From NCBI GenBank assembly GCA_011364905.1, contig RDNZ01000039.1, positions 1 through 27,882 of the forward strand: a DNA stretch of 27,882 nucleotides, given 5' to 3'. Position numbers and translations under genes: made by a program. Shown in pieces: positions 22,078 to 25,970 of the stretch. How positions within the stretch are numbered: position 1 is the first letter of the stretch; the number at the start of each line of letters is the position of its first letter. Source of the stretch: Candidatus Thorarchaeota archaeon (GTDB lineage: Archaea > Asgardarchaeota > Thorarchaeia > Thorarchaeales > Thorarchaeaceae). Below the pieces are notes generated by a model, which saw only the letters and a list, made by a program, of their open reading frames with translations, was not told where the DNA came from and made no database searches.

Positions 22078-22584
22078 ATGAATCAACCGTTTACTCTTCG
22101 CAAATTTGAGCCTGACGACCTAAAGCAGGTAGTTTCAATAAATGAGAGATGCCTACCGGAGAATTATCCAGATCAATTCTTCATGGGGCTGCATTACCAT
22201 GCGCCAGATGCATTCTATGTTGCGCAAAATGACGGAGAGATAATTGGATACATCATGTGCCGAGTTGAAAGGGGCATCTCTGGATTTGGAAGGATGCCAG
22301 TGAAGAAAGGGCATATTGTTTCTGTTGCAGTTCTTGGAACGATGAGGAATAAGGGAGTTGGAACTGCACTAGTCAACGCTGGGATGGAGGGTATGATGGG
22401 TTATGGGGCTAGTGAATTTTTCCTAGAGGTCAGAAAGACAAACGAAGAAGCTATTGCTGTCTATGAGAAACTAGGTTATACTGTACGTCGCGTTCTACGA
22501 GGCTACTATCGAGATGGAGAAGACGCTTATCTGATGGTCAAGAGGGTAGAGAGTGAACCTGAGGAAGGAAACGTAGATGAGTGA
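22078..22584 (+). CDS. N-alpha-acetyltransferase, Ard1/Naa10 (RimI-like GNAT)
   Basis: INERCLPENY, GYIMCRVE, KGHIVSVAV...RNKGVG, LEVRKTN, YYRDGEDAYLM. Confidence 0.92.
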   Translation: MNQPFTLRKFEPDDLKQVVSINERCLPENYPDQFFMGLHYHAPDAFYVAQNDGEIIGYIMCRVERGISGFGRMPVKKGHIVSVAVLGTMRNKGVGTALVNAGMEGMMGYGASEFFLEVRKTNEEAIAVYEKLGYTVRRVLRGYYRDGEDAYLMVKRVESEPEEGNVDE

Positions 22585-23609: not shown

Positions 23610-25253
23610 TTGATGAGTCAACAGGTACCGGTGCTTGTTTTAAAAGAAGACACCGAGAGAACGCGAGGCCGTGATGCTCAGAGAAACAACATCATGGCTG
23701 CAATTGTGATTGCTGAAGCAGTGAAGTCTGCTCTTGGGCCTAAGGGTATGGACAAGATGCTCGTTGACAGCTTCGGTGATATTACGGTCAGTAATGATGG
23801 AGCAACAATCCTGAAAGAGATGGACGTTGCACATCCAGCTGCAAAGATGGTAATTGAGGTCGCTAAGACTGTGGATTCAGAGGTCGGAGATGGAACAACC
23901 ACCTCTGCTGTTTTGACTGGAGACCTTCTGAAGCAGGCTGAAACCCTACTGGATCAGAAAATCCATCCAACCACAATTATCAGTGGGTATAGAAAAGCCA
24001 CTCAGAAAGCGTTGGAGGTAATTGACAAGGTCGCAGAACCAGTAGATCCTGCAGATAAGGAGTACAAGAAAATCCTCAATGATGTAGCGAAGACCTCAAT
24101 GTCAAGCAAGTTTGTTTCAACCTCAAAGGACCAACTTGCTAAGATTGTTGTTGATGCTGTCCTATCAGTCGCAAAAGACCTTCCCGAGGACGAGGAGCTT
24201 GATGTTGAAAACATACCACGCCAGAAGCAGGATGGAATGCCTGTCGATAGGACCGAGCTTGTTAAGGGTTTAGTCCTTGACAAAGAGATAGTCCATGCGG
24301 GGATGCCAAAGAGAGTGGATGGAGCCAAGATTGCACTAGTTGAGGCAGCTCTCGAGGTCACCAAGACTGAGTTTGATGCAAAGATCTCTATCTCTGACCC
24401 AGGTTCTATGCAGGGTTTCCTCGATGAGGAAGAACGTATGCTGAAGAGTATGGTTGACAAGATAGTAGCAGCAGGTGCAAATGTTGTCATCGCTCAGAAG
24501 GGCATTGATGATGTTGTTCAGCACTACCTTGCAAAGGAAGGAATCCTTGCTGTCCGAAGGATTAAGAAATCTGATGTTGAGCGTGTGCACAAGACAACAG
24601 GTGCTGCCATCATTTCCAAGATTCAGAACCTGACTGCCGCAGACTTAGGAAAAGCCAAGCTTGTTGAGCAGAGAGATGTCGGCGACGACAAAATGCTGTT
24701 CATCGAGGGAACACCGAAATCAAGTGTTGTCACTCTCCTCGTCCGAGGAGGAACAGATCACATAGTAGATGAGGTGGACCGTGCTCTGAATGATGCGCTC
24801 TACGTCGTTCGTGATGTTGTCATACATCCAGCTGTTACTTACGGTGGTGGTGCTCTGGCTGCAGAAATTTCCAAACAGCTGAGAGACTATGCTGCAACAC
24901 TCGAAGGAAGAGAGCAATACGCGGTCAATGCATTCGCTGACGCGGTTGAGTCCTTACCCAATACACTTGCGGAGAATGCAGGACTTGATCCTATTGACGT
25001 AATAGTAAATCTACGAAAGGCTCATACTGAAGGGAATGTCTTCCATGGCATCAATATTGACAAGGGACGTGTTGATGACATGAAGAAAGCCAGAGTTGTT
25101 GAATCCGCAATTGTTAACAAGCAGATTGTTATGTCAGCAGCTGAAGCGGCTCAGATGATTCTCAAAATCGATGATGTCATTAGCTCGAAGGGGACTCCAT
25201 CAATGGGTGGTGGCGGTCCTGGCGGCGCTGGTGACATGGGCGAGGACGAATAG
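23610..25253 (+). CDS. ths: Thermosome subunit (group II chaperonin)
   Basis: LGPKGMDKML, SNDGATIL, GDGTTT, AQKGIDD, LAENAGLD, ILKIDDVI and a Gly-rich tail; SD GGAGG at 23599-23603. Confidence 0.97.
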   Translation: MMSQQVPVLVLKEDTERTRGRDAQRNNIMAAIVIAEAVKSALGPKGMDKMLVDSFGDITVSNDGATILKEMDVAHPAAKMVIEVAKTVDSEVGDGTTTSAVLTGDLLKQAETLLDQKIHPTTIISGYRKATQKALEVIDKVAEPVDPADKEYKKILNDVAKTSMSSKFVSTSKDQLAKIVVDAVLSVAKDLPEDEELDVENIPRQKQDGMPVDRTELVKGLVLDKEIVHAGMPKRVDGAKIALVEAALEVTKTEFDAKISISDPGSMQGFLDEEERMLKSMVDKIVAAGANVVIAQKGIDDVVQHYLAKEGILAVRRIKKSDVERVHKTTGAAIISKIQNLTAADLGKAKLVEQRDVGDDKMLFIEGTPKSSVVTLLVRGGTDHIVDEVDRALNDALYVVRDVVIHPAVTYGGGALAAEISKQLRDYAATLEGREQYAVNAFADAVESLPNTLAENAGLDPIDVIVNLRKAHTEGNVFHGINIDKGRVDDMKKARVVESAIVNKQIVMSAAEAAQMILKIDDVISSKGTPSMGGGGPGGAGDMGEDE

Positions 25254-25289
25254 AAAGAGTCAAACGTGGAACAAAATCAGGTGTAGCTC

Positions 25290-25970
25290 ATGTCAGAAGG
25301 CTCTGAACCACCAAAAAAAGAAAAAAAAGATGCTGAAAAACCAGCTGAACCCACTATTGAAGAGATTGTAGCTCTATTGACGAATATCGCAGGCGTGGGT
25401 CCAAAGACTGCAGAGAAACTCGCTGCTGCAGGCTATGACACACTTGAGAAGGTCGTGGATGCAGATAAAGAAGCATTGGCTGCAGCAGTCGCAGGCCTGA
25501 GTGTAGCGAAGGCAGAGGCGACAATTGCAGAGGCGGCTGACCTTCTTGAAAAGGTGAATTCTGGAGCCATAGATCTGAGTGGGAAATCAAAGTCGAAGAG
25601 GAAGAAAGCTCCCGAGCCAGAACCTGATAGGCATGAGCTAGAACCCATAAAAGCCGTTGCAAGGGCTGAAGAACGAAAACGACTTGTGACAGGCTATGAG
25701 AAAGAAAAACTGGCAATGGGTATCCCTGTTGGTCCGAAATGGCTGACAAAGTTCGAAAAGGCTCGAATCATCGGCGCAAGGGCACTTCAAATTTCTATGG
25801 GAGCCCCAGTGTTGATTGATATGAAGACTGCACCCAAAGGACGATTCGGATTCGCCGAGGCGGAGCTTCGGGCAGGAGTTTTACCTATGACTGTTCGAAG
25901 GACTCTTCCCACTGGGGAGAGCTATGACATTGCCTTGTCAATTCTCTTGAAGAATACGAGGTTGGACTAA
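25290..25970 (+). CDS. rpo6: RNA polymerase subunit Rpo6 (K / RPB6 / omega family) with N-terminal helix-hairpin-helix domain
   Basis: C-terminal [22 protein letters not shown]...[21 protein letters not shown]; N-terminal [17 protein letters not shown]...[10 protein letters not shown] (HhH)2. Confidence 0.9.

Follow-up and report, generated by a model that had tools for sequence, protein, structure and literature searches.

The gene rpo6 (rpoK) of a Candidatus Thorarchaeota archaeon, situated at positions 25290-25970 of the 27,882 bp stretch analysed here (contig RDNZ01000039.1 of assembly GCA_011364905.1; in the following, the window), codes for a subunit of the RNA polymerase (RNAP) that carries an additional folded domain in front of its core. 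The open reading frame (ORF) lies on the plus strand, as do its parts and the thermosome gene described below; it begins with ATG and translates without internal stops into 226 amino acids (aa), the stop codon being included in the coordinates. A tandem helix-hairpin-helix module, (HhH)2 (hereafter HhH2), and a basic patch are fused in frame to Rpo6, as an earlier note on this sequence had proposed: the Pfam and NCBIfam matches and the motifs are found at the respective places, and both the identity and the reality of the fusion can be regarded as practically certain. Taken as a whole, the protein is best explained as the sole Rpo6 of its genome with an HhH2 arm that would grip nucleic acid, an explanation for which we see an even chance.

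Starting from its N-terminus, the protein consists of a variable, charged tail (aa 1-21, positions 25290-25352) that contains an A-run (25313-25328), the HhH2 domain (aa 22-90, 25353-25559), a Lys/Arg patch of the sequence KSKSKRKK (aa 99-106, 25584-25607) that is found in every member of the family (f1) to which the archaeon belongs, an acidic-proline motif (aa 108-119, 25611-25646; family consensus EPEPDxHELPP), and the Rpo6/Rpb6 core (aa 138-226, 25701-25967). The HhH2 domain is matched by the Pfam family HHH_5 (PF14520) at aa 29-84 with an E-value of 3.8e-11 and 43.7 bits (cut-off 27). It is of the type known from the RadA N-terminal domain and from topoisomerase V (Topo V) and contains two hairpin motifs of 12 residues each, the first at aa 33-44 (25386-25421) with GVGPK at aa 35-39, and the second at aa 67-78 (25488-25523) with GLS..KA at aa 69-75. 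Concerning the core, Pfam RNA_pol_Rpb6 (PF01192) matches aa 150-196 with 28.6 bits (cut-off 26) and the NCBIfam RpoK equivalog NF002207 matches aa 138-225 with 91.7 bits (cut-off 71); an RPB6-like motif of 12 residues is located in the translation at aa 199-210. The earlier note had let the core begin at position 25716. Its identification as Rpo6 holds, whereas its beginning has to be moved upstream, as the RpoK model places it near aa 138 (position 25701).

An AlphaFold2 model calculated from an alignment of 27 sequences leaves the tail disordered (aa 1-21; predicted local distance difference test, pLDDT, below 50) and aa 91-134 without structure, and predicts the Rpo6 core with confidence (pLDDT mostly 81-94, and 77 at the final residues). 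The Rpb6 fold, i.e., two central helices and a C-terminal beta-finger, is present in the predicted core, and the five helices of the HhH2 domain span aa 23-30, 38-47, 52-57, 60-66, and 72-90. When the whole model is searched with Foldseek, nearly all matches are Rpb6 chains; the core superimposes on chain F of Pol II with a root mean square deviation (rmsd) of about 1.5 Å at 37-42% identity and a target template modelling score (TM) of about 0.8, and it also matches Sulfolobus RpoK. Folded alone, the HhH2 domain reaches a pLDDT of 84-87 and resembles the RadA N-domain of M. voltae (rmsd 1.0 Å over 57 aa, 40% identity) and the NusA AR domain (rmsd 1.2 Å, 38% identity), matches of this short isolated domain for which the Foldseek E-values are weak (0.016 or higher) and rmsd and probability are good.

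The gene is the single Rpb6-family match in its genome, which comprises 3.08 Mb and is 80.8% complete with 4.6% contamination. When only the core was searched for in all 86 genomes of the family, 81 of them, among these all 23 high-quality genomes, proved to have one copy each; no Rpo6 match was obtained in the remaining five of the 86, one of which is 92% and four of which are 62-83% complete. The Rpo6 frames of the family measure about 220-300 aa unless they are cut by a contig end. A second Rpo6 or a contamination was considered and rejected, since the sole second match in the family, in genome G327, is incomplete, being cut off by the end of its contig. With one copy per genome, the fused protein is thus the polymerase subunit and not an extra paralogue, and a canonical short rpo6 elsewhere, which according to the earlier note would undercut the fusion, was found neither in the archaeon's own genome, at the completeness given, nor in the family.

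The same architecture exists in 296 database proteins and in genomes of 16 genera, with independent assemblies, which speaks against the assembly artefact considered in the earlier note. The closest homologues bear the name Candidatus Thorarchaeota, e.g., that of SMTZ1-45 with 87% identity, and relatives keep the same frame across the A-run as well as the same N-terminal residues. In a survey of Rpo6 architectures over 400 genomes of the phylum, family f1 alone gave matches to the whole length of the protein (aa 1-226, with identities down to 49%), and it did so in all 16 genera, such that the fusion is conserved among relatives; in the sister family and around 310 other Asgard genomes, the matched part is restricted to aa ~137-226 or, where charged tails are present, begins at about aa 100. 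Among 1.84 billion representative proteins, the N-terminal fusion is present in only three clusters at 50% identity (P0121-P0123).

Translation very probably proceeds from the upstream ATG and not from the internal in-frame ATG at 25716, which corresponds to Met143; the latter was tried as a start and rejected. A Shine-Dalgarno-like element, AGGTG, can be read from the sequence at 25279-25283, 6 nt 5' of the ATG of the long ORF. An element of the GGTG type is situated 6-9 nt before this ATG in 18 of 20 relatives, the sister family included, and the other two possess GGGT or GGGGT; no AGGTG-like element is found ahead of the ATG at 25716. Several genera have I, L, K, or R in place of Met143. 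Among six genus-level sequences, the ratio of nonsynonymous to synonymous substitution rates (dN/dS) amounts to 0.045 in the HhH2 domain, 0.06 in the connector, 0.047 in the core, and 0.8 in the N-tail, with a value of about 0.05 for the part upstream of Met143; given that dS reaches saturation at about 1.5, the ratios are approximate. Purifying selection on the HhH2 domain and the connector is as strong as that on the core. The first 21 codons (25290-25352) show, in this small sample, a dS of only about 0.27 compared to about 1.5 in the remainder of the gene, and a dN/dS of about 0.8; the low dS in this purine-rich 5' end, which includes the A-run, may reflect a constraint at the nucleotide level.

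The segment between the HhH2 domain and the core is constant in its length. In 121 of 141 distinct fused proteins, 79 residues separate hairpin 2 from the GPKW motif of the core (range 72-83); the tail before hairpin 1 comprises between 5 and 98 residues across fused proteins and is poorly conserved. Within the connector, the region of the Lys/Arg patch (aa 91-108) has a net charge of +3 to +9 (median +5), and the following region with the acidic-proline motif (aa 109-137) is mostly acidic (-10 to +1). Residues E109, P112, L117, and P119 of this motif are conserved at 90% or above, and a partial counterpart of it is found in the tail of the sister family. The fixed length together with the conserved K/R patch and EPEPDxHELPP motif implies that the connector is a ruler rather than a free linker. 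A flexibly tethered arm, as originally envisaged, is therefore correct insofar as AlphaFold2 leaves the connector unfolded, but not with regard to its conserved sequence, its dN/dS, and its fixed length. Compared with the long, acidic, and disordered N-tail of eukaryotic Rpb6, the N-tail here is disordered in the model and has a net charge of only -1, as opposed to -6 to -13 in most relatives; throughout the family, a folded domain and a basic patch break up the tail, and the sister family has a full acidic one. Two metagenomic proteins, P0030 (325 aa) and P0045 (320 aa), contain the unit of HhH2, Lys patch, and EPEPD..ELPP twice in tandem before the core.

Concerning the relationships of the HhH2 domain, its family profile retrieves among the sequences of the Protein Data Bank (PDB) residues 622-688 of Topo V (E 1e-13), archaeal RadA/Rad51 N-domains (E 2.5e-11 to 4e-10), the extension of Haloarcula L32e (E 5e-8), and NusA AR2 (E 1e-4), whereas the best PDB match of the module as a single sequence is the N-terminal HhH extension of haloarchaeal L32e (E 6e-7). 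Its closest relatives in the databases are HhH2 arrays on subunit A of Topo VI (P0124 with seven copies, P0136 with four) and an L32e with four HhH2 copies (P0127). The L32e of the archaeon's own genome is without HhH. Its Topo VI subunit A (746 aa; contig G000:C78, at about 59.6-61.9 kb on the minus strand, L128) has a very Lys-rich N-tail with a net charge of +38 in the first 110 aa, followed by a pair of basic HhH2 modules of the RadA type as well as a basic patch before the TP6A_N and Toprim domains. The N-domain of the genome's own RadA was considered as the nearest paralogue and rejected, as it gave no match at E-values up to 0.01; the HhH2 copies of Topo VI-A were matched.

The form GVGPK of hairpin 1 is that of a canonical DNA-contacting hairpin. 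In an alignment of 18 fused forms (A3), G37, K43, G69, S71, K74, and A75 are invariant, and they are still conserved at 90% or above in alignment A1, which includes the HhH-less sister sequence. One invariant Lys thus follows each hairpin (K43, K74), and the rest of the domain's surface is variable and acidic. The N-domain of RAD51 contacts the DNA backbone via Lys64 and Lys70 (PMC10990931). Judging from the G-h-S-x-x-K spacing, K74 may correspond to Lys70; a query of 39 aa with hairpin 2 obtained no matches among PDB sequences, and the correspondence therefore rests on the spacing of the motif and on the coordinates of the PDB matches.

In every archaeal and eukaryotic polymerase, the Rpo6/Rpb6 core is anchored at the base of the clamp, and the core of the fused protein would be anchored there as well. 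The connector, with a fixed length of about 47 residues, would follow a defined path and position the HhH2 hairpins and the lysine patch such that they could touch the sugar-phosphate backbone of DNA, irrespective of its sequence, within the main channel or close to it. This is the region into which the N-tail of Rpb6 is observed to extend in yeast, and the expected effect would be a stabilised loading or retention of the DNA (open complex, processivity). In the pre-initiation complex of yeast, the Pol II cleft accommodates residues 12-35 of this tail (PMC9935396). Considered on its own, a nucleic-acid grip by the HhH2 arm is slightly less than evenly probable.

A grip on nucleic acid is supported by the nearest solved relatives of the domain, the HhH2 of Topo V and the N-domain of RadA/Rad51, and by the occurrence of the same HhH2 type, in basic form and beside a Lys-rich tail, on the archaeon's own Topo VI-A. 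Topo V (HhH)2 domains contact the DNA backbone without sequence specificity, and so does the N-domain of RAD51 (PMC10990931). The HhH2 domains and Lys-rich tails found on Rpo6 in other Asgard lineages (see below) count in favour of the grip as well. Several observations weigh on the other side. Hairpin 2 is a G-L-S pseudo-hairpin, and the Rpo6 HhH2 domain has a net charge of -6 and an isoelectric point (pI) of 4.3 in this protein (median charge -5.5, range -10 to +2, and pI about 4.4 across the family). As an acidic HhH2, it resembles the protein-binding AR domains of NusA, which are close structural neighbours. The AlphaFold2 model shows no docking of the arm or of the connector, and the C-terminal HhH2 arms of a second clade (see below) are strongly acidic, whereas their unfused kin have basic tails. 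The acidity weakens the reading of the domain as a simple, non-specific DNA binder and leaves room for that of a protein-binding module similar to NusA AR or of one occupying the cleft; it is compatible with backbone contacts, since the N-domains of RadA/RAD51 bind weakly. The N-domain of this genome's RadA, with a net charge of -4, is about as acidic as the Rpo6 HhH2, and the two HhH2 copies of its Topo VI-A have net charges of +2 and +5. A prediction of the complex of Rpo5 (alignment A4) and the Rpo6 core with aa 18-137 of Rpo6, from which Rpo1 was left out, yielded a score of 0.04 (mark 0.32) and counts neither way.

The arm might alternatively be a protein-binding or self-regulating module that either recruits a factor, in parallel to the contact between NusA AR2 and the bacterial alpha subunit's C-terminal domain (alpha-CTD) or to that between the RPB6 tail and TFIIH p62, or that mimics DNA and fills the positively charged cleft of the polymerase while the latter is idle, in parallel to the yeast Rpb6 tail. 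Such a function is possible, though we consider it rather unlikely. It would agree with the net charge of -3 to -10 that the HhH2 domain has in most family members, with the place of NusA AR among its nearest folds and profile matches (E 1e-4, as given above), and with the strongly acidic C-terminal HhH2 arms of the second clade. Hairpin 1, however, keeps GVGPK, whereas the hairpins of NusA AR replace the second Gly, and neither K43 nor K74 varies in the fused forms. In favour of such a module, the sister family possesses, in the same place as the arm, a purely acidic, eukaryote-like tail, and tails of this kind are engaged in the known systems both with the cleft, as in yeast Rpb6 (PMC9935396), and with a factor, as in human RPB6, the tail of which binds the PH domain of TFIIH p62 (PMC8754651). 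For a DNA mimic, the ever-present lysine patch (+3 to +9) beside the domain would be odd, and for a recruited factor, no candidate partner is encoded in the conserved gene neighbourhood. We know of no candidate partner for the HhH2 arm of Rpo6 from elsewhere.

That the extension is mainly structural is improbable. The connector is fixed in its length and under strong purifying selection, and part of its motif, being shared with the sister family, predates the HhH2 domain, both of which would fit a structural part; so would the Rpo6-Rpo5 and Rpo6-RID contacts in a published model for Thorarchaeota (PMC13257274), and the family's Rpo5, which is itself unusual as a long form with an endonuclease-like N-domain. 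A structural role would, however, leave unexplained why a complete HhH2 domain with conserved hairpins is retained, why some members carry two tandem copies of the unit of HhH2, patch, and motif, and why another lineage added an HhH2 domain to the opposite end of Rpo6; moreover, the rest of the Asgard archaea assemble their polymerases without such an arm. The archaeon's own genome contains two Rpo5 paralogues in tandem (G000:C47:74758-75312 and 75417-75962; L130) that are 66% identical, each with an N-terminal Mrr/restriction-endonuclease-like domain and Rpb5_C, which we take to be the architecture of the eukaryote-like long Rpb5. The long Rpo5 was found in 35 of 41 sampled genomes of the family (20/20 high-quality), the tandem duplicate in some genera only.

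Finally, an artefactual long ORF, or a normal short Rpo6 started at Met143, is next to impossible, for although the ATG at 25716 is in frame and a frameshift might in principle be hidden in the A-run close to the 5' end, the 296 proteins of identical architecture, the dN/dS of about 0.05 upstream of a Met143 that relatives replace, and the conserved AGGTG before the long-ORF ATG, with no such element before 25716, contradict it.

The gene for the thermosome (Cpn60/TCP-1; Pfam PF00118, E 4.6e-177) is situated directly upstream of rpo6 at 23610-25253. Only 36 nt separate its stop codon from the start of rpo6, a gap from which it can be inferred that the two genes are probably co-transcribed. Between positions 22577 and 27881 of the window, the order of genes is: ARMT1-like damage-control phosphatase, thermosome, rpo6, MgtC/DUF4010 membrane protein, and hisS. 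The 16 genera of the family keep this order, as does the sister family, and rpo6 lies outside the ribosomal-protein/rpoN cluster throughout the order. The position of rpo6 after the thermosome gene instead of in its usual operon, to which the earlier note had drawn attention, is thus real and conserved across the order.

At the same syntenic slot, the sister family, represented by one genome, possesses an Rpo6 of 153 aa with an acidic, eukaryote-like tail and without HhH. Since synteny is identical in this family, whose Rpo6 has no HhH, the simplest history is a single acquisition of HhH2 and the lysine patch, in situ and at the root of family f1, by an Rpo6 that already had a charged N-tail like the one still present in the sister family.

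A second fusion of Rpo6 and HhH2 has the opposite order. In six metagenomic proteins (P0145, P0279-P0282, and P0165; locus L035:5412-6134), the Rpo6 core comes first, and behind it lie one or two HhH2 domains that belong to another subtype, with G-h-G in both hairpins. These C-terminal arms have net charges of -5 to -19 (two-domain forms), whereas the unfused kin P0283 and P0284 (L037:8001-8462) end in PAKKAAKK repeats with net charges of +21 and +29; owing to their acidity, the arms of this clade leave the function of such additions unsettled. The genome closest to the clade is a metagenome-assembled genome labelled Heimdallarchaeota (L041), with 70% identity in the core and a shared RNase R-like neighbour (60% identity), and its short Rpo6 stops exactly where the additions of the clade begin. 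In the species genomes, the C-terminal fusion was not recovered: a query with P0279 gave no match, and one with the alignment gave only short Rpo6 genes. A further Asgard family (f17; L120, L121) has a Lys-rich N-terminal tail with KKxxKK on Rpo6. Charged or HhH appendages thus recur at the termini of Rpo6 in Asgard archaea. A broader interpretation, according to which Asgard polymerases repeatedly built appendages on Rpo6 that grip nucleic acid or chromatin and the Thorarchaeal arm is an intrinsic DNA clamp or a contact to promoter DNA, is doubtful. The protein P0251 (553 aa) is similar to LarA (lactate racemase) with a weak C-terminal Rpb6-like match (E 5.9e-5, below the cut-off) and may be a fusion due to gene calling.

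The core of the protein is a full member of the group formed by canonical Rpo6/RpoK, eukaryotic Rpb6 (RPABC2), and bacterial omega, as regards the equivalog match, the fold, and the single copy. With eukaryotic Rpb6, it shares an N-terminal extension that could reach the cleft. Despite this similarity, there are clear differences: canonical archaeal Rpo6 is some 60-120 aa long, and the tail in eukaryotes is disordered and acidic, whereas a folded HhH2 domain, a lysine patch, and a conserved connector of fixed length are found here. The N-domain of RadA/Rad51 and the repeats of Topo V provide the best profile and fold matches and share the pattern GVGP...GhS..KA, but the domain is situated here on a polymerase subunit, not on a recombinase or topoisomerase; it is also more acidic than the HhH2 copies on the archaeon's own Topo VI-A. 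The N-terminal HhH extension of haloarchaeal L32e is likewise an HhH2 of the same type fused to a protein of a nucleic-acid machine, though host protein and lineage differ. Bacterial alpha-CTD and NusA AR1/AR2 are comparable in that they, too, are small domains of HhH type linked to the polymerase or to a polymerase-bound protein, and NusA AR, as a close neighbour in fold, is acidic like the Rpo6 HhH2. Unlike alpha-CTD, however, the arm belongs to another subunit, is placed at the opposite end of the protein (the N-terminus), has a separate origin, and is held by a conserved tether of fixed length. The comparison with alpha-CTD drawn in the earlier note is hence valid as a functional analogy and not as homology; a Pfam search at E-values up to 1 gave no match of the alpha-CTD family (PF03118) in this protein.

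The long N-terminal sequence of Thorarchaeota Rpo6 and its helix-hairpin-helix-type element are mentioned in one sentence by Shematorova and Shpakovski (Int J Mol Sci 2026;27:4679; PMC13257274), who cite Shao and Grishin 2000 for the element and model extra Rpo6-Rpo5 and Rpo6-RID contacts, no coordinates being given there for the Rpo6-interacting region. The protein family and the observation are the same as here; the analysis of distribution, selection, connector, charge, and convergent fusion is added by the present study. A search of the available literature library found no other paper linking Thorarchaeota, RNA polymerase, and HhH. The fusion is thus already in print and in routine annotations (as 'subunit K'), and it constitutes a real, lineage-wide, and selected variant of a known subunit.

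The subunits of archaeal RNAP, which serves as a model for the eukaryotic enzymes, are thought to be without a built-in DNA-binding arm such as alpha-CTD. On the broader, doubtful interpretation outlined above, the arm on its strut of fixed length would be an archaeal counterpart of bacterial alpha-CTD, perhaps aiding the transcription of histone-bound DNA. The fusion also provides a concrete protein with which the use of the position of the Rpb6 N-terminal tail can be probed, and its HhH2 domain (about 70 aa), or the module of about 100 aa that includes the lysine patch, could serve the engineering of polymerase processivity. Given the second, independent fusion, the selected arm present throughout the Thorarchaeal family suggests that contacts of the polymerase with DNA or with factors can be hard-wired into Rpo6.

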